DNA of 64,000 nt from a virus. Both the position numbers and the translations under genes were made by a program. Below are positions 1,407-43,116 of this stretch, piece after piece. The notes under the pieces are model-generated. The model was not told the origin of the DNA. It saw only the letters and a list, made by a program, of their open reading frames with translations, and did not search any database. The stretch covers positions 2,916 to 66,915 of IMG/VR virus record IMGVR_UViG_3300047469_000054. One strand, written 5' to 3'. Position 1 is the first letter of the stretch, and the number at the start of each line of letters is the position of its first letter.

Positions 1407-2663
1407 ATGAGCAAAAATACACCGCGCACAAAAGAAGAGCTTCTAGAAGATGTAGCGGCCTATGAAGAGCACGGCACATACCGCAAGGCTGCTGAGGCTA
1501 TAGGCGTTGCCTGCTCGACATTCAGCGACCGCATGAAGCGCGCTGGCGAGCTTGGACTACTCGGAACCGATCCGGTTATTCATGGTTTTCGCATTAGCCG
1601 CGTATCGACGCAGGAAGATGAAACCGGCCATACGGTCAAGCGCTACATTCAGCAAAAACCAGAGCTTGGAGACAAGTTCGAGCAGCCGGAAGGCCACAGC
1701 GTCAAGGGCGTATCGGCGCTAGTCGATGCTGACGGTCGCGTTATCCAGAAGTGGATTAAGACGCGTAATGAATACAGCGCAGAGCAGATTACAGATATGC
1801 TCAAAGCTGCATATGAGGCTGGAGAGTTTGACTTTGTAAGGCCAGTAACGCCGCGATATAATGTCGAGGCATGGGATAAGTTCGAAGATGACAAGCTAAC
1901 GTTATACCCCCTGGCTGATTTCCATCTTGGCTTGTTCTCATGGGGCAAGGAAACCGGCCTTAATTGGGATCTTAAGATAGCCGAAGAGAAGATTGGCGAA
2001 ACCCTAGAAGAAGTCTTCAAGCGCTCTCCGCGAAGCCGTGAGGGTATCGTGCTTGGCGGTGGCGATCTTCTGCACAGCGACACCAACGAGAACAAGACAG
2101 CCAAGAGCGGCAACGCTCTTCAGGTTGATGGGCGGTATCAAAAGATCCTGTTCGCCGCCTGTCGCCTGATGGTCAAGGCAACTGAGCTTGCATTGCACAA
2201 GCATGAGAAAGTTACGGTTCGCATCCTTCAGGGCAATCATGATGAGCATTCATCGTTCGCCGTGGCATATTTCCTGCTTGCTTGGTTTCGAAATGAGCCG
2301 CGCGTGACCATTGATTGCTCTCCATCAATTTACTTCTGGTATGAGTTTGGCAAGGTGCTTATTGGCGCGGCACATGGTCATACGGTGAAAATGAATCTTA
2401 TGCCGCAGATCATGGCTAGCATCATGTCTGAGGCGTGGGGGCGCACGCTGCATCGTTATGTCCACGGATTCCACATTCACCATAAGAGTCAGTACGTGAG
2501 CGAAGGCGGCGGCGTCATCTGCGAATCGCACCAGACGCCAACGGCCAAGGATGCTTGGCATGCGTTCGCAGGTTACTTGTCTGGTCGATCTATCCAGTCC
2601 ATTACCTATCACGCACTATATGGCGAAATCAGCCGCGTACGGGTAGCTCTGCTGGACGCATAA
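1407..2663 (+). CDS. N-terminal HTH plus calcineurin-like metallophosphoesterase
   Basis: Motifs DFHLG, GGDLLH, GNHD, AHGH, GFHIHH; N-terminal TYRKAAEAIGVACSTFSDR is HTH-like; RBS AAGGA before ATG 1407. Confidence 0.75.
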   Translation: MSKNTPRTKEELLEDVAAYEEHGTYRKAAEAIGVACSTFSDRMKRAGELGLLGTDPVIHGFRISRVSTQEDETGHTVKRYIQQKPELGDKFEQPEGHSVKGVSALVDADGRVIQKWIKTRNEYSAEQITDMLKAAYEAGEFDFVRPVTPRYNVEAWDKFEDDKLTLYPLADFHLGLFSWGKETGLNWDLKIAEEKIGETLEEVFKRSPRSREGIVLGGGDLLHSDTNENKTAKSGNALQVDGRYQKILFAACRLMVKATELALHKHEKVTVRILQGNHDEHSSFAVAYFLLAWFRNEPRVTIDCSPSIYFWYEFGKVLIGAAHGHTVKMNLMPQIMASIMSEAWGRTLHRYVHGFHIHHKSQYVSEGGGVICESHQTPTAKDAWHAFAGYLSGRSIQSITYHALYGEISRVRVALLDA

Positions 2664-2666
2664 GAT

Positions 2667-2692
2667 AAAGCGGCGCGAATGCCGCTTTCTTC
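2667..2692 (+). terminator. Rho-independent terminator
   Basis: AAAGCGGC-gcgaat-GCCGCTTT followed by a T-rich tract. Confidence 0.6.
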
Positions 2693-2721
2693 TTGACTAG
2701 CCGTAATGGGTGAGATAGATA
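2693..2721 (+). promoter_or_regulatory. sigma70-type promoter
   Basis: TTGACT-17 bp-TAGATA upstream of AAGGAG RBS and ORF 2753. Confidence 0.55.
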
Positions 2722-2752
2722 TTGGGCAAATACAGACAAGGAGACTAAAGTT

Positions 2753-3022
2753 ATGCAGGGAAAATGGGAGCGACAAACGCATCGACATAGCTGTGGAGAG
2801 AACTATCGCGTCGGCAAGATCATTGTTGGTTCGGCCTATTACTCTTCCACAACGCGCGGAGATCCACTAAAATATGCCGTAACAATAGATCTTCCAGGAA
2901 TAAAGAACCCTGACGATAGATACGCCGACATAGAGCCAGCGAAGGCTCGTCTAGAGCGTGCCGTTGCCGTTTGGTTTCGGTGGATTGCCGAAGAGAAGAT
3001 AGCAGACAAGGAGACATCATGA
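2753..3022 (+). CDS. Hypothetical protein
   Basis: AAGGAG RBS; coupled to the next ORF. Confidence 0.6.
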   Translation: MQGKWERQTHRHSCGENYRVGKIIVGSAYYSSTTRGDPLKYAVTIDLPGIKNPDDRYADIEPAKARLERAVAVWFRWIAEEKIADKETS

Positions 3023-3519
3023 CAAGCTACCTAAAGATTGAAGCATTCCGCGCGCTGGCCTATGCTGAAGCATTCCTTTCCGAGTATGAATCGGTGAAGA
3101 ATTCAGTTATTGCGGCAGATAAAGCCAAGGTGGATATTTTCCAGAAAAATGCCTTTGAGCATATTCTCCAAGAAGTCGCAACCGGAGAAAAGGTTAGATT
3201 CCTCCTCGTCTTTATGCGCAAGCCAAGCGTTGCCGAAGCATCGCGCCGCGTTAGCGAGCGTATCGATGAAATGAGAAACGATGCGAATAACCATACTTGG
3301 CTGTTCAAAGATCAACGTCGCCATCGATATGCTGGCTATGGCGCCATTTGGCATCATCCACGGAAATGGCCCGGAGATTTTCCATATTGGCTACGCAATA
3401 CAGCTTGCACCTTGCGCGATGCTGGAAGGTCCGGCGTTGACGTATGCATGGCCGTTGATTCCGACGAATTCAAGGTTTTCAAATGGATCGTGAGGAAGCA
3501 AGACGGCAATGCGGAATAA
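3019..3519 (+). CDS. Hypothetical protein
   Basis: AAGGAG RBS; ATGA overlap with the upstream gene. Confidence 0.6.
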   Translation: MTSYLKIEAFRALAYAEAFLSEYESVKNSVIAADKAKVDIFQKNAFEHILQEVATGEKVRFLLVFMRKPSVAEASRRVSERIDEMRNDANNHTWLFKDQRRHRYAGYGAIWHHPRKWPGDFPYWLRNTACTLRDAGRSGVDVCMAVDSDEFKVFKWIVRKQDGNAE

Positions 3520-22821: not shown

Positions 22822-23891
22822 ATGGAAACAATCGACATTACGCCAACGTGGCGCGACGTAGCAAGAATCATTGCTGCCGTTCTTGAAAATGGCACTGAGG
22901 CTGGTAAGCTGGCAGCTTGGGAGCAGCTAAATTCCATGGCTATGGCTGCCGATGATCGCAATGCTGCCACTCAACAAGCTTGGCGTCTTGCTGTTGTTGG
23001 TGAGAGGCTTGGCGACGCACTGAAGCCATTTGCGGACCTTGGCAACATCTGGCTTCCCGAAAGTGAGGATGATGATAGCGCCTTTGTGCGCGCCGATGAT
23101 ACGGCGGCAACCGGTGTAACCGTTGGCGACCTTCGCAACGCGGCGCGCGTATACAAGGATATCGCCAATGGCAAAGATTGAAAAGACGCGAGCCAACAAG
23201 CCACTGGCACATGGAGGCGCATTCTTCGCCCGCAACGACGATGGCACGCTGTCAATCGGCATGTCGTATATTGCTGTTAATGGGCTGCCGACATCATACA
23301 CGCTTACGCTTGATGCAGACGAGAGCGAACATGCGCGAGATTTCGTCAATCGCCCAAGCTCAAACGATGGGCGGGAGAAGATTCGGTTATGCAAGCATAA
23401 TGATGATGATCATTGGGAAGTCTGCGCCAATAGTCATCAAAATCCTGATGAGTTCATCTACCGGACAATCTGGCTATGAGCACACGCGAAGACTTCTTAC
23501 GGTCGGCAAGTGAAGCTAGCGCCATCGTAGTATGCGATGATGGCGCTCTTATTGACGAACAGAAAATTACCAATTCATGCTATCTTGTTAAAAGTGGCAT
23601 CGCATATATGACGGCTACTCTTGCGGCTGAAGTCCAAACCGGCTTGATGGCGCGCCGTGCGCGGGTATATCAGCCATGATCAAGCTCGAGCATAGCGTAG
23701 GCGAATGGCTTGCCCTGGTGGAGATTATTGGTGATGAAGCAGAGCGTTTCGTCTACGGCAAGAAGCACCTCTTCGGCATGCGACGGCATAGAGGCGTCAT
23801 TCGATTCGTTATCGAGGATCATCGCGTGCAAGGACTAATGGAGTTTGCCGCTAAGCGTGGCGTTGACGTTGTGATTGCTGTAGACATATAG
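22822..23891 (+). CDS. Four coupled small hypothetical proteins (22822-23181, ~23168-23479, 23476-23679, 23676-23891)
   Basis: AAGGAG RBS at the first gene; ATGA overlaps. Confidence 0.55.
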
Positions 23892-24104: not shown

Positions 24105-24143
24105 AAACGCTCGTAAGGCTGATGACCTTGCGGGCGTTTTTTC
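24105..24143 (+). terminator. Rho-independent terminator
   Basis: AAACGCTCGTAAGG-ctgatga-CCTTGCGGGCGTTT followed by TTT. Confidence 0.75.
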
Positions 24144-24145
24144 TG

Positions 24146-33790: not shown

Positions 33791-33817
33791 CGCTCTCATG
33801 CACCCATAACGACATAC

Positions 33818-33840
33818 AAAGCGCCAGTAGGCGCTTTTTT
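33818..33840 (+). terminator. Rho-independent terminator
   Basis: AAAGCGCC-agta-GGCGCTTTTTT. Confidence 0.75.
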
Positions 33841-34430
33841 AATTTGTACATACGTATAGGATTATTTTTCTACAGTTTCGTTATTTTAGCATCACGAAAC
33901 GCAGTAGTACTATTTCGCCATAAAAAAACCACGCACTTTTTGTTTTGCTAAGACTACCTTAGTTTTATTTTTATGTTAAGTTGTTGATTTTTATCATGTT
34001 ACAATTTATTGGTTAGTGTGTCACAATTTATGCAACCATGCCACAATCATCCTGTATATTAGCTGTTTTTTAGGCGTTTCGCAGTAGTTCGCACTTTTGA
34101 TAAACAAAACTGTATTCCTGTTTTAGCCTTAATATCATGTATTTTTGGAATGTTATTTCAAACGCTATAATTTGGTACTTATTGTAATTTTCATATATAT
34201 CTAAGTCATTGATTTTTAATACGCACTTTTGGTTTTCAAAAAGTGTGAAAAAGTGCGTATTTTGGCAAATAACTGCGTCAGAACTTTTTCTCACACTTTT
34301 TTATTTATCCCTACACCCCTCCACACTTCCCCTATATACCTCCTCTTGAGAGGGGTATGTAGGGGAGTGTGGGGGAGGGAGTAGGTGCGAACGATAAGAA
34401 AACTACTGCGTCGTAGAAAAGTTGTTGATA
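33841..34430. other. AT-rich origin-like region with short repeats, IHF-like sites and a large inverted repeat
   Basis: CGCACTTTT x3 plus an inverted copy; CGCAGTAGT x2 plus an inverted copy; TAAnnnnTTGATT at 33977 and 34202; palindrome 34310-34385. Confidence 0.5.
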
Positions 34431-34695: not shown

Positions 34696-35247
34696 ATGAC
34701 TAAAGTCCGCAAACGCATCATGCGCCGCAAACGCGCTCGCGTCGGTGACGTTATCTTGTCTCCGGGAAAGAGCACCACATCAACCGTCGTCATTGACGGC
34801 AAGCGTGTACTGGTTCGCCAGAGGATGGACAAGGATGGCGTTATCCGCACGACTACGACCAATGCTGCCATTCTCGAGTCTGACCTACAGGCGGCGCAGG
34901 TTGAGGCGTTGAGAGCGCATCCACTCTATGGCATGGCATTTACGCTGGCTGGAGATATGGGCGCGGGCAAGCGCGGACCACAAGCGCAAGCTGATGCCGT
35001 CCGTACAGGTCTTGAGAGCGGAGAGCCTGACTTGCGCATTTACATCATTGGCGGTAAGTTGCTGTCTGTCGAGAACAAGGCTGAGAAGACGCCTGTATCT
35101 AAAGCGCAGAAAGATAGGCATGCACTCTTGCATTCGCTTGGATTTCAGGTAGAAATCATCAGGACAACGACATGCGACATGGCCGTTCATCGAGTCATGT
35201 TGCTTATGGCGACTGTCGTTCCTGGTTTCATATATGAGGAGAATTGA
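34696..35247 (+). CDS. VRR-NUC endonuclease
   Basis: ESDLQ...G..SGEPDL....ENK......S.AQ...H..L...GF.V. Confidence 0.75.
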   Translation: MTKVRKRIMRRKRARVGDVILSPGKSTTSTVVIDGKRVLVRQRMDKDGVIRTTTTNAAILESDLQAAQVEALRAHPLYGMAFTLAGDMGAGKRGPQAQADAVRTGLESGEPDLRIYIIGGKLLSVENKAEKTPVSKAQKDRHALLHSLGFQVEIIRTTTCDMAVHRVMLLMATVVPGFIYEEN

Positions 35248-35248
35248 C

Positions 35249-36708
35249 ATGGATATCGTTAATATGATTTTGTCGTATTGGTGGCTACTTGTTCAGATTG
35301 CTATCGGCATTATGGCGTTGACAATCGTAACGCTCGTTAGCGCGGCAACCGCAAGAATTATCAGCACGGATCACAAAATGCTAGTCGACAAACACGATCA
35401 CCTATTGCGAAATTATCGTTCTGTTGTCGGCAATCTGAATGCTCATAAACGGCGATTGCGGGAAGTAAGGGGTAGCTTGGCGACGGCTTATGCTTATGAT
35501 CGCTGCTCAGATGAAACCGTTAAGGCGTTCTCGGCTTGGCTTGCCCTAGGTAGTCCAGGCGCTAATCCAGGCGATGAAAGCAAATGGCATACAGGTGGCT
35601 TTGTTGGTGGTAATGCTCCGCCTTCAATCGTCAATAATGATTATGTCGTCGCAGAAGATAGATTCGGCTATCATCCTAATGTGGCTTTCTTTCCTAGTAC
35701 TGCCAACGTCGTCATCACGCAAGCCCTTGCCGATCAGATTACGGAAGCCAACATCACGCGCAAGCTGGAGGACAGTATCCAGCGTGGCGAGGATATGGCC
35801 ATGCATGATGTCGACAATGACCACGACGGAGGCGCTATGCTGCATGCTGACTTTCGCGACGAAACAAAAGAAGAGCGCGTGGACCGGGTCCGCCAGCAGA
35901 TTACCGAATCACTTTCAGGCGAAGGCAGGCTGTCACAATGGTTCGGACTCACGCGCGCCGCTTGGGTAACGCTTCCGCGATCGTTTATGCAGGAAATGCC
36001 AGACGAATGGCAGCGTAGGTTCGCTATTTGCCTGGAAGAGATTCAGGACACATTTCCTAACGCACCAAAGGAAATCGCCAATACGGTCGTTACTGGACGA
36101 GTCGGCGGCAAGTTCGTGCGTATTCCCGAATGGGTTAGCAATTACAGGCGCCCTGACTTGGATTTGATTAACGCGTGCCGTCGCGCTGATGTGGTTTTTG
36201 CAGATGACGGCAATAGTTATTCCACCCCCGAACACAATGGCGATGGCAGTGTTTACATTCCTGATAGCGATGATCCCGATGCGGTTGACTGGATGCGTCA
36301 GCGTGTACGCCATGACTGATTTCAGAGTAAATGTCACATGTAGAGAAGGCGGTATACATGACGGCAAGCTTCACGTATTGCAAACGGTCGTCACGGCTAG
36401 TTCATTATGGGAAGCCAAGCAAGAAGCCAAGCGCCGCGCTAGGAATGCTGGTTCTCGCATTATTCATTCGATAACATTGGGGGAAGATCATGACTGACGT
36501 AAGCTACATCATTCGTGCCAAGACGGCGACGGCAACGGTTGTCATTGAGAAATCCATCCAATTGCATTTCGTTGCTTTTGGTGACGAAACTGCTCAAGAC
36601 GCATACAATCGATATATTGCTGGCCTAGCGGCATCAGGTATTAGTTTAAAGGTCATCCGAAATTCATCTCCACGCTTCGTTGACGACGATTCCAGCGGCG
36701 CCATATGA
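35249..36708 (+). CDS. Hypothetical proteins (35249-36319 with N-terminal TM, ~36312-36497, 36490-36708)
   Basis: RBSs and coupling. Confidence 0.5.
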
Positions 36709-36709
36709 T
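36680..36709 (+). promoter_or_regulatory. sigma70-type promoter upstream of the hairpin array
   Basis: TTGACG-18-TATGAT; predicted start coincides with the first stem. Confidence 0.5.
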
Positions 36710-36713
36710 CTAT

Positions 36714-37150
36714 TGTGAGACGACGACAAAACGAAAAACCTTTAAATTATATCGCATTACAGGTTTTGTGCTTAGGTCGTCTCACATAATTATTTCGCGA
36801 CACGGTTGATATGGCATTGCGTTGACGCTTGTTATATCCTGTGGCGCGCGACTTATACCGTAAGCGCTAGCGCCACCCACAAGGCATGCTGCGCTATTGG
36901 CGAGTGGCGACAATTGTTATCCTTGGCAACATGTCGTCACTCGCAATTATTGACAGGGTAATAAGCGGTGGCTGCAACTTTCGCTTAGCAATGTATAGAC
37001 GCTGTCTTGCATTGTCCCTGTCTGCTTAATTGGTGCTGATTAATGTTTAGTGATTCGCTCACGCATGAAGTCCATAACCATAACATGGATAGCACTAATG
37101 CCCATAGCGACGTCCCGAAGTAGGCCATTGGCTACCGGCTACGGCGCTTA
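36714..37150 (+). ncRNA. Candidate ncRNA: tandem array of ~6 stem-loop / three-way-junction units
   Basis: ORF-free; consecutive closing stems of 7-13 bp with G-U pairs on the + strand; AU-rich linkers. Confidence 0.6.
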
Positions 37151-37233
37151 GCGAGCGGTTGAGCTTGACATTGGTATCCTCCAACTGTATGTCTTATGCT
37201 CCCGCTCGCATTTTCACAGAAGGAGAAAATCAT

Positions 37234-37482
37234 ATGCATCTTTGGGGTAAACTGGTGGATAGTTCTGGCATCGCAGACGACATGGAAGATGCCGTTGAGG
37301 CTGAATTGGCTCGCAGATCATCAATCGGATCTCGCAAGGCATTCATTGAGCGTACGGCGCCTATGTTCTTGCAGGCTGCAATTCAACAGGGACGATATGT
37401 CGATGATGATGCCATAAAGCTAAGTGTTGCTCGCGCCGATCGTCTCTACAGCGCCATTCAGGATCATGATATTGGCAAGTAA
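37234..37482 (+). CDS. Hypothetical protein
   Basis: AAGGAG RBS; promoter TTGACA-17-TATGTC at 37165. Confidence 0.55.
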   Translation: MHLWGKLVDSSGIADDMEDAVEAELARRSSIGSRKAFIERTAPMFLQAAIQQGRYVDDDAIKLSVARADRLYSAIQDHDIGK

Positions 37483-37780
37483 TAACAAGCGCTCCGCAGA
37501 AGCCATAGAGGCTCGCAAGCTATACAAGACGGCCAAATGGCGTAGGCTACGCGAGGCGCATGTCTTGGATGAGCCATGCTGTCGTTATTGCATGCGAGCA
37601 GAGGAAATCATGCCGGTTGAGGTTGTGGACCATATTAAACCGCACAAGGGCGACTTGACATTGTTCTATGATCCCGATAACCTCCAGAGTCTATGCAATC
37701 TATGCCATTCAAAGCTTAAGCAGTGGGAAGAGAATAACAAGCTGGTTATACATTTCGATGGCAATGGCTGGCCTATTTAG
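37466..37780 (+). CDS. HNH endonuclease of the terminase-associated (HK97 gp74-like) type
   Basis: Y.T..W..LR...L..EP.C..C....VVDHI.PH.GD..LF.D..NLQSLC..CHS.K...DG.G.P. Confidence 0.85.
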   Translation: MILASNNKRSAEAIEARKLYKTAKWRRLREAHVLDEPCCRYCMRAEEIMPVEVVDHIKPHKGDLTLFYDPDNLQSLCNLCHSKLKQWEENNKLVIHFDGNGWPI

Positions 37781-39750: not shown

Positions 39751-40166
39751 CGTCCATGCACAGCGTTATGCGCACGCCTATCAGGTATCCATTCGGCAGG
39801 CCAGCGCTTGACCAGGACGCGCTGTGGAGATGCGTGGCTAAGACGTATGCGAACTATGATCCGGATCCCATAGACTACGGCCACGACATAGGCTCGCATC
39901 AGGACGTGGAGCTACACTATTATGCAGTGGATAGGCGTACTCCATGTGGCGCTTGGATCGTGCTAGGGTATGGCGTGCATGGTCATGAACGTAGGTTCGT
40001 GCACCTTGGTAAGCGCAAGCAGTACGCCAGCAACACAGAAGGCGAGGCCGTGCGTCAGTTCGTTAAGCGCAAGGATAGGCACATCTCCATCCTGGAGGCG
40101 CAGGCCGCCGCCGCGCGCGAAGCTAGGGCTATCGCTATGCAGCACGTCGATGTAGGCTCGACGTAG
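39747..40166 (+). CDS. Hypothetical protein
   Basis: V.R.TPCGAW motif; coupled. Confidence 0.55.
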   Translation: MTSMHSVMRTPIRYPFGRPALDQDALWRCVAKTYANYDPDPIDYGHDIGSHQDVELHYYAVDRRTPCGAWIVLGYGVHGHERRFVHLGKRKQYASNTEGEAVRQFVKRKDRHISILEAQAAAAREARAIAMQHVDVGST

Positions 40167-40580: not shown

Positions 40581-40982
40581 ATGGCGGGCAGACCGCGCAA
40601 GCCACTTGCCAAGGCTAAAATTGAGGGCCGAGATAAAATTCACGCCGGGCGCTATTCAGGCAGAAATGAGCCGAAAGGAACAGAAGGGGCGGGAGATCCA
40701 CCCGACTATCTACAGGATGTTGATGGCAACCTAACCCGTACCGCATGGTACCTCTTTACAATTGAGATCCCATGGCTAAACTCATCCCATAGGTCGCTAT
40801 TGGAAATGGCCTCATTGATACGCGGAGAAATCATTGCTGGCGGCATGCCTGGAATTCAACGGCTTAATGCGCTACGTATGATGCTAGCCCAAATGGGGGC
40901 AACTCCAGCGGATGCAACTAAGGTAGGTGTAGGTGGAAAAGATGACGAAGACGAAGACGATGAATTCTTTAACGGTGGCTGA
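40581..40982 (+). CDS. terS: Terminase small subunit (P27-like)
   Basis: MAGRPRKP....K..G, PPD.L, AW......PWL, G.TPA..K; acidic C-terminus; upstream of terL. Confidence 0.8.
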   Translation: MAGRPRKPLAKAKIEGRDKIHAGRYSGRNEPKGTEGAGDPPDYLQDVDGNLTRTAWYLFTIEIPWLNSSHRSLLEMASLIRGEIIAGGMPGIQRLNALRMMLAQMGATPADATKVGVGGKDDEDEDDEFFNGG

Positions 40983-43116
40983 AAAGGCCACCGCTGCCGC
41001 CCAGCGCCGCGCGCAACAAAAGGAGAAGGCTATTGCCGGAAGACAAAAAGAAGATACCGTATTGGGGAGACAGAAGCATGCGAAGCCGTTGGTTGCTGCT
41101 CAAGAACTTTCGCAAGGCAGAAAGGGAGTGGTGCGGCAAGCTGAAAACGAACAGGTTCGGCAGCCTAACGCACTGGACCGTGCTTCTGCCTATGCCCGTG
41201 CGGTATTGGATGGCGATATCATTGCCGGTCCACATGTGCGAAATACGTGCCGTAGACATTTTTCTGACCTTGACGTGGGCCGAGATCGCGGTATCTTCTT
41301 TGATTTAGCTAAGGCGCAACGCATTGTAGATTTCTTTGAGAAAAAGCTTAAGCTGTCTGAGGGGCAGTTTGAGGGCTTGCCGTTCAAGCTTGCGCCTGTT
41401 CAGGTGTTTAAGCTGGCGTCAATATTCGGATGGTATCAAGCCCCTCTTGTGGGCGGTAAATATGATTTCGATGCTCCCAAAGGCGTCGTTAAGGGTGTAA
41501 ATATTGCCGCTGGAAGGTATGCGCGTAGACGCTTTCGACGCGCGTATATCGAAGAGGGCAAAGGGAACGGCAAAAGCCCCTTTGCCGGGGGCATCGGCCT
41601 ATATGGCTTATGCGCAGATGGCGAAGGCGGAGCGCAGATTTACGCCGCCGCCGCTAAGCAAGCGCAGGCGAACATTCTGTTTCAGGATGCCGTAAAGATG
41701 CGCGCTGCAAGTAAGGCGCTAAAAAAGCGCATTAATGGGATATCTGGTGGTCCAGGCAAGGAATACAATATGGCGCATTTGGCGTCAGGATCTTTCTTTC
41801 GTCCAATCTCAAAGGAGGCGGGCAAGACAGGCTCCGGCCCGCGCCCGCTATTCGCCTTGTGCGATGAAGTGCATGAGCATCCAGATAGAAAGATTATGGA
41901 GATGCTGGAACGTGGCTTTAAGTTCCGACTGTCTCCGCTACTGCTTATGATCACTAATAGCGGTAGCGATCGCAATTCCATTTGTTGGGAAGAGCACGAA
42001 TGGGCATGTAAGGTGGCCGCTGGCACTAGGACGCCTGACGATGATTTTACCTATGTTGGTGAGCCAATTGGCGATGATACGTTCTCGTATGTTTGCGCTA
42101 TGGATAAGGATGACAACCCACTAACTGATCCGTCGTGCTGGTACAAGGCTAACCCAATGCTGGATATTATCCTTTCTCAAGAATACCTAGCTGGCGTCGT
42201 GAAAACCGCCAAGGATATTCCAGGTCAGAGAAACGGTATTTTGCGGCTGCATTTTTGCACTTGGACAGATTCCGATAAGGGATGGATGAGTCGAGAGATA
42301 ATCGATAGGGCCATGGTTGACTTTGATCCTTACGAAATTCATAAGGAGGGAATTATTGCCGCTGGCGTTGACTTGTCCAAGACTCGAGATTTGACCGCCG
42401 CAGCTTTCGTCGTAGAGACTGGAAAGGTTACTGTTGATAGAACGAATTCGGATGGCTCCATTGAGGAAATGGAACTACCTACGTTTGATGCGTGGGTAGA
42501 GGCGTGGACTCCAAAGGACACTATTCTAGCACGCTCTGAAGCAGACAAGCAACCATATGTATTATGGTCGGAAACCATGTATCCCGGAACTGATCAGCCA
42601 TATTTAAGGTCGACTCCTGGGGAGCGCATTAGATATGATCATGTCGCATCATTCTTTGTGAAGGTTAATCAAGAGATGCGCCTTAAGGGCATTGCATATG
42701 ATAGATATGCATATGATAAGTTTAAGGAGGAGTGCGAAAATCAAGGGCTTGATGTTAAGCATATAGCCCATCCGCAAGGCGGCAAGATCCGCGCTAGGGT
42801 AGACCCTAAAGATGTTGAATTGGCTGAGAAGGCCGGAAAACCAAAGCCTCTTGGCTTATGGATGCCTGGGTCTTTGAAGTTATTCGAAGACGCTATTATT
42901 GATGGGCGCGTGCGCTTGCGTATGTCGCCCGTGTTGATGACTGCGCTTATGGGCGCGGCTCTGGCTAAGCCAGATGACCAGGGAAATACATGGTTTGTTA
43001 AGGGTGACACAACAGTTAGAATCGACCCGGCTGTCGCTCTAGTTATGGCGTTTGGATTAATTCACGATATGCCGATTGACGAAACTGAAGGTAAATTCCA
43101 AATGATGTTTCTGTAG
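40960..43116 (+). CDS. terL: Terminase large subunit (cos-type)
   Basis: GKGNGKS Walker A, LCDEVH Walker B, W.KANP, GVDLS...DL, YDRY, RIDPAVALVMA. Confidence 0.95.
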   Translation: MNSLTVAEKATAAAQRRAQQKEKAIAGRQKEDTVLGRQKHAKPLVAAQELSQGRKGVVRQAENEQVRQPNALDRASAYARAVLDGDIIAGPHVRNTCRRHFSDLDVGRDRGIFFDLAKAQRIVDFFEKKLKLSEGQFEGLPFKLAPVQVFKLASIFGWYQAPLVGGKYDFDAPKGVVKGVNIAAGRYARRRFRRAYIEEGKGNGKSPFAGGIGLYGLCADGEGGAQIYAAAAKQAQANILFQDAVKMRAASKALKKRINGISGGPGKEYNMAHLASGSFFRPISKEAGKTGSGPRPLFALCDEVHEHPDRKIMEMLERGFKFRLSPLLLMITNSGSDRNSICWEEHEWACKVAAGTRTPDDDFTYVGEPIGDDTFSYVCAMDKDDNPLTDPSCWYKANPMLDIILSQEYLAGVVKTAKDIPGQRNGILRLHFCTWTDSDKGWMSREIIDRAMVDFDPYEIHKEGIIAAGVDLSKTRDLTAAAFVVETGKVTVDRTNSDGSIEEMELPTFDAWVEAWTPKDTILARSEADKQPYVLWSETMYPGTDQPYLRSTPGERIRYDHVASFFVKVNQEMRLKGIAYDRYAYDKFKEECENQGLDVKHIAHPQGGKIRARVDPKDVELAEKAGKPKPLGLWMPGSLKLFEDAIIDGRVRLRMSPVLMTALMGAALAKPDDQGNTWFVKGDTTVRIDPAVALVMAFGLIHDMPIDETEGKFQMMFL

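Follow-up and report, generated by a model that had tools for sequence, protein, structure and literature searches.

What is known of regulatory RNAs in phages comes almost wholly from a handful of enterobacterial models. In phage HK022 the put RNAs, two stem-loops formed just after the promoter, serve as a cis-acting antiterminator; in lambdoid phages the Q gene follows ninG/rus, and in Stx phages tRNA genes lie further downstream. The late promoter PR' of Stx phages is always active and is terminated just downstream, giving a short regulatory RNA, as outlined in PMC7547250. Here we describe a gene-free stretch of 525 bases (positions 36709-37233, + strand) in DNA of an uncultured rhizosphere phage lineage. 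The window, that is the whole stretch of 64,000 nucleotides (nt) that was analysed, covers bases 2916-66915 of a 66.9-kb virus record (IMGVR_UViG_3300047469_000054) classed as having direct terminal repeats, and positions refer to it unless another locus is named. The stretch is non-coding, shows unusual folding and stands behind a promoter-like element; the promoter blocks and the first two hairpin units, U1 and U2, are conserved with some compensatory change in a second phage locus, L004, whose copy ends in an intrinsic terminator. We tentatively read it as a promoter-proximal structured leader or non-coding RNA cassette that would gate rightward transcription and may yield stable RNAs, a reading to which we give a little less than an even chance. 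The element comprises the following parts:

36679-36709, + strand: promoter-like element, GTTGAC at 36679-36684, 16 nt, CCATAT at 36701-36706
36714-36786, + strand: U1, a 73-nt hairpin with an 11-bp closing stem, an apical AAAACC/GGUUUU helix and a 21-nt loop (z -5.45), predicted to lie at the 5' end of the transcript
36796-36848, + strand: U2, a 53-nt bulged hairpin of 21 pairs (3 G-U) with a conserved A/G mismatch (z -3.77 on +, -1.65 on -)
36841-36876, + strand: alternative hairpin GUGGCGC...GCGCCAC overlapping the 3' strand of U2, with which it may compete (z -1.52, not significant)
36900-36944, + strand: U3, a 45-nt near-continuous hairpin of 19 pairs, followed by AAUUAUU (z -7.17 on +, -5.40 on -)
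36952-37022, + strand: U4, a 71-nt three-way junction closed by GACAGGG/CCCUGUC (z -3.79 on +, -3.29 on -)
37029-37099, + strand: U5, weak (z -1.64), its firm part being the 9-bp closing stem AUUGGUGCU/AGCACUAAU alone
37151-37209, + strand, with an AUUUUCA tail to 37216: U7, a long hairpin GCGAGCGG...CCGCUCGC (z -2.60 on +, -2.45 on -)

The locus shares with the lambdoid PR'-tR' leader (lambda 6S RNA; StxS, as far as it is outlined in PMC7547250) a predicted promoter directly followed by a putative non-coding transcript, an intrinsic terminator (in L004) and genes on the same strand. The element likewise follows a recombination-nuclease gene and an open reading frame (ORF) of ~300 amino acids (aa), and tRNA genes of relatives lie further downstream. 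It differs in having no sequence or family relation to that leader, in its two- to threefold greater length and far richer structure, and in lacking a clear terminator in the window copy: L004 has both the promoter blocks and a terminator at 3445-3478, whereas the window has merely a long hairpin with AUUUUCA that the terminator scan does not call. No member of a Q-type antiterminator family was found among the 361-aa and 72-aa proteins of the window or the ~300-aa ORFs of relatives. The likeness to HK022 put lies in two stem-loops at the predicted transcript start that precede a terminator and are conserved whatever gene follows; U1 and U2 are, however, about twice the size of the put stems, and in L004 a third hairpin stands between them. 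As in the dicBF-type prophage leader, from which the DicF small RNA (RF00039) is processed, the hairpins are promoter-proximal, gene-free and modular, with AU-rich linkers that would suit RNase E and long helices that would suit RNase III, but the element has no DicF match and belongs to another phage lineage and host group.

A non-coding and unusually folded stretch

The earlier note, made from the letters alone, had called the stretch ORF-free. Strictly, four + strand ORFs of 34, 51, 47 and 33 aa are present; the claim holds in substance, as their codon-usage scores range from -0.03 to -0.18. The highest score, -0.03, belongs to the 34-aa ORF at 36705-36809, whose ATG overlaps the stop of the upstream gene, and equals the 95th percentile of the alternative-frame null. 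Because the inner ORFs all score at or below zero, against +0.25 and +0.30 for the flanking genes, the stretch 36709-37233 is non-coding; moreover, indels of 1-3 nt separate the window from L004 across U1 and U2, so that no reading frame is conserved.

Folding was evaluated with per-unit z-scores from 200 dinucleotide shuffles. The four stems that the earlier note had placed at 36714-36786, 36797-36847, 36900-36944 and 36952-37022 are present as described, and U1, U2, U3 and U4 were each more stable than 200 of 200 shuffles on the + strand. The region 36700-37170 reached a z-score of -4.59 on the + strand versus -2.46 on the - strand, and the entire stretch -5.76 and -4.02 (15 shuffles). Among 852 windows of 150 nt across the genome, 36901-37050 and 36826-36975 ranked 2 and 4 on the + strand (37 and 33 on the - strand), and the windows of the 3' part, 36976-37200, folded no better than average. 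U2, U3 and U4 have well-defined minimum free energy structures, which account for 0.47-0.72 of the ensemble, and no other gene junction of this tightly packed genome carries a comparable hairpin array. Two further units proposed at the 3' end fared worse: U5, put forward as a second three-way junction, retains little beyond its closing stem in the centroid structure, and a last bulged hairpin at ~37106-37150 was not supported, the segment 37102-37160 being no better than shuffles (z +1.11).

Selection on a + strand RNA had been argued from the excess of G-U pairs. The count agrees, with 14 G-U among 134 predicted pairs on the + strand versus 3 among 122 on the - strand; the energy asymmetry, however, is partly compositional, since + windows fold 4.6 kcal/mol better than - windows genome-wide (sd 7.4) and this effect makes up about one third of the asymmetry of the element.

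The units had also been described as tRNA-sized. ARAGORN found no tRNA gene in the window, and the Rfam tRNA family RF00005 was matched neither at its gathering score nor, within 36300-37600, at E<=10; the units resemble tRNA in length alone. Rfam 15 gave no match at gathering score to any family, including GOLLD, ROOL, HEARO, 6S, DicF, group I and II introns, ribozymes and riboswitches, and at E<=10 the interval 36300-37600 returned two eukaryotic miRNA families alone, on the - strand and at 18-19 bits against gathering scores of 70-80, which are chance matches. In agreement with the statement that the units form no repeat family and are not a CRISPR array, there was no tandem repeat of CRISPR or toxI type, just two-copy imperfect matches of 9-19 nt; the linker AATTATT does occur twice, as reported. 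A hammerhead reading of U5, made by eye, was rejected as the core misfits and no Rfam ribozyme matched, and so was a group I intron carrying the HNH gene, the 82-aa gene having its own ribosome-binding site and no intron family matching. Among the titles and abstract openings that literature searches returned, none describes the element. With its first two hairpins kept in a related phage, the stretch is probably a real, uncatalogued RNA element and not a set of tRNA-like genes.

The promoter said to end at the first stem was recovered by the promoter scan, which reads TTGACG-18-TATGAT, a sigma-70-like site with 10 of 12 matches ending at 36709, 5 bases before the U1 stem. The pattern TTGAC-N16-18-YATAT occurs 3 times in the window versus 0.9 expected, and promoter-like sites as a class are not enriched in the surrounding 3 kb (4 found, 4.0 expected from shuffles). 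A second promoter proposed after the last unit was not confirmed: its TTGACA at 37165-37170 was not called by the scan and is enclosed, together with a CCUCC loop, in the U7 hairpin.

The promoter blocks, U1 and U2 recur in a second phage

L004 is a locus of 18 kb on a viral contig, found by a TerL search, with a TerL 63% identical to that of the window. Whereas blastn of the element against 87 loci returned nothing, nhmmer gave a single weak match (E 0.14), in L004, which was later shown to be a genuine U2 homologue. The locus reads, in order, a VRR-NUC gene (1798-2256), a 280-aa ORF (2243-3085), the element and a next gene from 3546. The comparison was based on local alignment and covariance models, as MAFFT, aligning the two arrays end to end, gave a misleading result; 200 shuffles served as the null for local alignment (Smith-Waterman mean 24.9, sd 3.3, maximum 37.5).

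U2 with its 5' linker aligned to L004 with a Smith-Waterman score of 64. The covariance model R2, built from the window U2 alone, found L004 3252-3309 at 38.6 bits and E 1e-6, its sole match in 1.25 Mb from 83 sources, the E-values being rough owing to short model calibration. U1 aligned to L004 3118-3195 with a score of 41.5, and the top match of the U1 model, R3, in the 18-kb locus with filters off was 3116-3197 (15.0 bits, E 0.029); under default filters R3 misses L004. In the closing stem of U1 a G-C pair has become A-U and a U-A pair G-C, each through changes at both bases, and the apical AAAACC/GGUUUU helix and much of the loop are identical in the two phages. In U2 the two phages share the four outermost pairs, the A/G mismatch and a UU bulge, and two pairs have been replaced at both bases, G-U by U-A in helix 2 and G-C by C-G in the apical helix. 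The promoter blocks are kept as well, as GTTGAC at 3081-3086 and TTATAT at 3103-3108: the spacing GTTGAC-N16-YYATAT is identical in window and L004, with 7-9 nt to the U1 stem, and the spacer sequence has diverged. Promoter blocks, U1, U2 and a slot after the VRR-NUC gene, by which we define the U1-U2 element, thus occur together in both.

The remainder of the L004 element is again a series of stable structures. A hairpin at 3198-3245 has the arm GGCGAGUGG in common with U3 yet stands between U1 and U2, a homology recognised by eye only. At the place corresponding to U4 lies a multi-branched unit (3310-3410; z -3.05 on +, -1.68 on -) that is unalignable to U4, and at 3410-3443 UUAAUUGGUG is followed by a stem UGGUGGUGC/GCACUAUCA that resembles the closing stem of U5, a likeness not significant by local alignment. 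Comparison of the units across relatives, which the earlier note had asked for, therefore gave a divided answer: U1 and U2 are kept with compensatory changes, but the rest is unalignable and the U3-like hairpin is reordered. The element closes with a canonical 14-pair intrinsic terminator (3445-3478), the strongest terminator-like site of the first 10 kb, and no promoter-like site was called between it and the next gene. The flanking genes of the two phages are unrelated (upstream 72 versus 280 aa, downstream 82 versus 127 aa), which identifies the conserved part as an RNA module.

No third U1-U2 member was found in the pattern scans of viral and genome contigs, in 81 other related loci, in the 151 genomes of the family of genome G003 or in genomes G001 and G002. 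The scans yielded 42 viral and at least 120 genome-contig stretches for U2 and 4 viral stretches for U1; candidates other than the L004 contig fell on re-alignment, among them L185 and L133, which were inspected and rejected. Model R2 gave no match in 3 genomes and then none in the 151 genomes of the G003 family. A DNA similarity search of 50,697 phage records gave no match, searches of viral contigs with the flanking 361-, 82- and 72-aa proteins gave nothing beyond one distant domain match, and a single-query TerL search of metagenome and genome contigs gave nothing; the TerL alignment search, in turn, gave 80 metagenome loci, all at <=63% identity.

A different structured RNA in the same slot of relatives

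Many TerL relatives share a gene order of VRR-NUC gene, 260-360-aa ORF, ORF-poor stretch and small genes, then HNH, TerS and TerL. The ORF-poor gaps show mixed fold z-scores, and in Rhizobium phage RHph_X2_26 the gap before the HNH gene is unstructured (z -0.56). In a subset of the relatives the slot holds a structured RNA, R1, which consists of a helix H2 followed by GUAACUAU, an inner hairpin, a downstream hairpin pair and a hairpin sequestering the ribosome-binding site. Of the 9 pairs predicted for H2, 4 have changed at both bases without loss of pairing in an alignment of 12 rows. The R1 model, which covers H2, the inner hairpin and GUAACUAU, matched 16 of the 83 sources at E<=4e-4, namely the 12 training rows and L022, L041, L024 and L010, of which L022 and L041 score identically to L020 and L040 and are possibly duplicates. 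Examples are L020 7394-7705, L016 7695-7950, L015 2288-2540 and L021 8349-8650, with 12 more loci; both phages and prophages are represented. R1 has no Rfam match. The type of its 5' hairpin appears to track the type of the upstream ORF (L015-like or L020-like).

R1 and the window element have the slot, the + strand and multiple hairpins in common, but homology between them is not detectable. The R1 model matched neither the window nor L004, the best window scores with filters off being noise (10.1 bits on +, E 0.019 in 1 kb; 9.4 bits on -), and R2 and R3 matched none of the R1 loci. R1 is sometimes followed by tRNA genes: three relatives have them closely upstream of the HNH gene (L026 8138-8211; L027 9017-9087 and 9095-9167; L023 4105-4180), in the VRR-NUC to HNH interval where the window has its hairpin array. 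These observations suggest that, in this clade, unrelated structured RNAs and tRNAs have repeatedly come to occupy the slot between recombination-nuclease and packaging genes.

The ORF ahead of the slot keeps its position at the end of the VRR-NUC gene (window 35234-36319, L004 2243-3085, L015 1414-2262, L020 6438-7373). These ~300-aa ORFs were mutually unrelated by BLASTP in the three pairs compared and have no clear domain; two of those in relatives gave sub-threshold Sigma70_r4 matches (E 0.04-0.06), and a protein atlas search with the 361-aa protein of the window was uninformative.

A possible gate on rightward transcription

The reading we lean towards, short of full conviction, is that an RNA of ~0.5 kb on the + strand heads a rightward transcription unit whose genes, the 82-aa and HNH genes followed by small ones, extend to the terminator at 40144. 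Host RNA polymerase would start at the sigma-70-type GTTGAC-N16-CCATAT, placing U1 at the extreme 5' end of the transcript and U2 next. U1 and U2, with the more variable hairpins behind them, would then form a cis gate on downstream transcription and transcript stability. In L004, polymerase would either stop at the strong terminator before the next gene or read through it, and the terminated or processed leader could accumulate as a stable structured RNA. The start site, the gating of read-through and any processing are what we infer from the arrangement of these parts. If the 5' hairpins do control terminator read-through, RNA-based antitermination would extend beyond HK022-type phages; otherwise, the locus still contributes two uncatalogued RNA families usable for modelling and searching. 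It also offers a defined, testable promoter/structured RNA/terminator cassette.

Several observations weigh against this reading. The -10 block of L004 fails the sigma-70 criteria, and no promoter-like site was called in L004 2900-3700; taking YYATAT as a -10 element leans on the alpha-proteobacterial consensus, CTTGAC-N17-CTATAT. Four pairs of the U2 middle helix are absent in L004, where U2 folds no better than shuffles (z -0.39), and with two known members only, four pairs carry all of the evidence for covariation. No alignment of window and L004 is possible over the 3' two thirds. As to strand, the two best-folding windows rank merely 49 and 90 of 852 for asymmetry, and U1 is equally stable on both strands. 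The window copy has no canonical terminator at its end, U7 not being called by the terminator scan, so that an arrangement suited to termination-based gating would be apparent in L004 only. Finally, the upstream proteins have no recognisable regulator domain.

A polycistronic precursor from which RNase III, E or P, cutting in the AU-rich linkers, would release several independent RNAs of 45-75 nt (trans-acting small RNAs, decoys or antitoxin mimics), in line with the earlier note, is unlikely, though well short of negligible. The build is modular, with U1 and U2 kept and the U3-like hairpin in another order in L004, and the AAUUAUU linker follows both U1 and U3; RNase III cuts helices of ~19-21 bp, and U2 and U3 are helices of 19-21 bp. 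Genuine tRNA genes of relatives also lie further down the same gene interval. Yet no unit resembles a tRNA or a known small RNA family, the units conserved in the sole relative are two of about six, and no target or defence system can be named. The promoter-to-terminator unit of L004, the persistence of the RNA while the flanking genes differ and the well-defined structures of U2, U3 and U4 would suit one large trans-acting structured RNA of ~370-500 nt with its own promoter and terminator and a function unrelated to its neighbours, like the large phage-associated RNAs. For such an RNA a conserved core is expected, yet two thirds are unalignable at 63% TerL identity, the window copy has no terminator and no Rfam large-RNA family matches at E<=10, and we regard this explanation as distinctly unlikely.

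That the array consists of generic hairpins between cistrons, which like those of T7 would stabilise the mRNA or be cut by RNase III, or of neutral remnants is improbable. It would account for the position of the element in a unit with a terminator on either side (33818 and 40144), for hairpins without U tracts and for a 3' part that evolves fast and folds averagely, but not for the conservation of the U1 apical loop, the U2 A/G mismatch and UU bulge and the fixed spacing of the promoter blocks, nor for the absence of such arrays from the other junctions. A role at the level of DNA (origin of replication, site of packaging, inverted repeats bound by a protein) is highly improbable: although U1 is a perfect 11-bp inverted repeat with equal folding on both strands, and the - strand of the region also beats shuffles (z -2.5 to -4.0), the G-U pairs favour the + strand, U2-U5 are each 4-9 kcal/mol less stable on the - strand, and the compensatory changes keep pairing, not sequence. 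Moreover, there are no iterons and no AT-rich tract here, and the gap at 33791-34420 looks far more origin-like. Small peptides, such as one from the 34-aa ORF, are barely credible as the product of the region, even though the ATGA overlap suggests translational coupling and this ORF reaches the 95th percentile of its null; the non-positive scores of all four ORFs, the frame-breaking indels across U1 and U2 and the lack of a Shine-Dalgarno sequence (0 of 4, by eye) speak against it.

Within the leader or cassette reading, a bolder version holds that U1 and U2 form a protein-independent, put-like processive antitermination RNA of alpha-proteobacterial phages, with R1 as a second solution to the same task. 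The nascent U1 and U2 would stay bound to their polymerase and carry it through the terminator of L004 and those downstream (40144 in the window). We consider this joint claim a long shot.

Genome context and neighbouring genes

The only sequencing run found with this DNA is a rhizosphere metagenome containing one identical contig and no variants, and is probably the source sample. All plausible genes of the window lie on the + strand; recognisable ones include those for a helicase, a primase-polymerase, a prohead protease-capsid fusion and a tail tube protein. Judged by TerL, the closest named phage is Rhizobium phage RHph_X2_26 (60.8% identity), and the host of this uncultured phage can be deduced, provisionally, from its TerL relatives only. 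The genes around the element are:

34696-35247: VRR-NUC-like nuclease gene
35234-36319, + strand: 361-aa ORF overlapping the end of the VRR-NUC gene
36490-36708, + strand: upstream 72-aa ORF (codon-usage score +0.25), its final codons overlapping the promoter blocks
37220-37225, + strand: strong ribosome-binding site AAGGAG preceding the 82-aa gene
37234-37482, + strand: 82-aa gene, the first downstream of the element (codon-usage score +0.30)
37466-37780, + strand: HNH endonuclease gene, the second downstream, in the same transcription unit
40933-43116: TerL gene

The 72-aa product belongs to no Pfam or PHROG family and has no relatives in viral contigs, and the 82-aa protein is an orphan, a homologue search returning itself alone. 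The HNH protein is ~50% identical to those of 51 related loci, including the annotated HNH of RHph_X2_26. The terminator scan found canonical + strand intrinsic terminators at 33818 and 40144 on either side, which places the element inside one rightward unit. Downstream of the HNH gene, TerS follows after 2.8 kb with ~7 small genes and a terminator (TerS-TerL region 40581-43116), and in most relatives HNH is found ~0.3-1.7 kb upstream of TerL. The segment 40126-40275 (GC 0.33) folds strongly, contains the terminator at 40144-40164 and directly precedes the small-terminase region; the packaging/structural operon probably has its boundary here.

Upstream of the VRR-NUC gene, an AT-rich gene-free gap at 33791-34420 contains the canonical terminator (33818-33837), repeated short motifs CGCAGTAGT and GCACTTTT, and a long near-perfect palindrome at ~34300-34380 whose window ranks first for folding among the 150-nt windows on both strands (z -5.2 and -4.4). 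A comparably outstanding hairpin lies upstream of the VRR-NUC gene in L003 (601-750) and L004 (301-450). The gap looks like an origin or major promoter region. Elsewhere in the window, a second TTGAC-N17-CATAT site at 23863-23889 is followed by ~250 bases poor in ORFs, after which a clear intrinsic terminator stands near 24105-24145; the interval from 23863 to ~24145, with a fold z-score of just -2.04, may be another small promoter-to-terminator unit.

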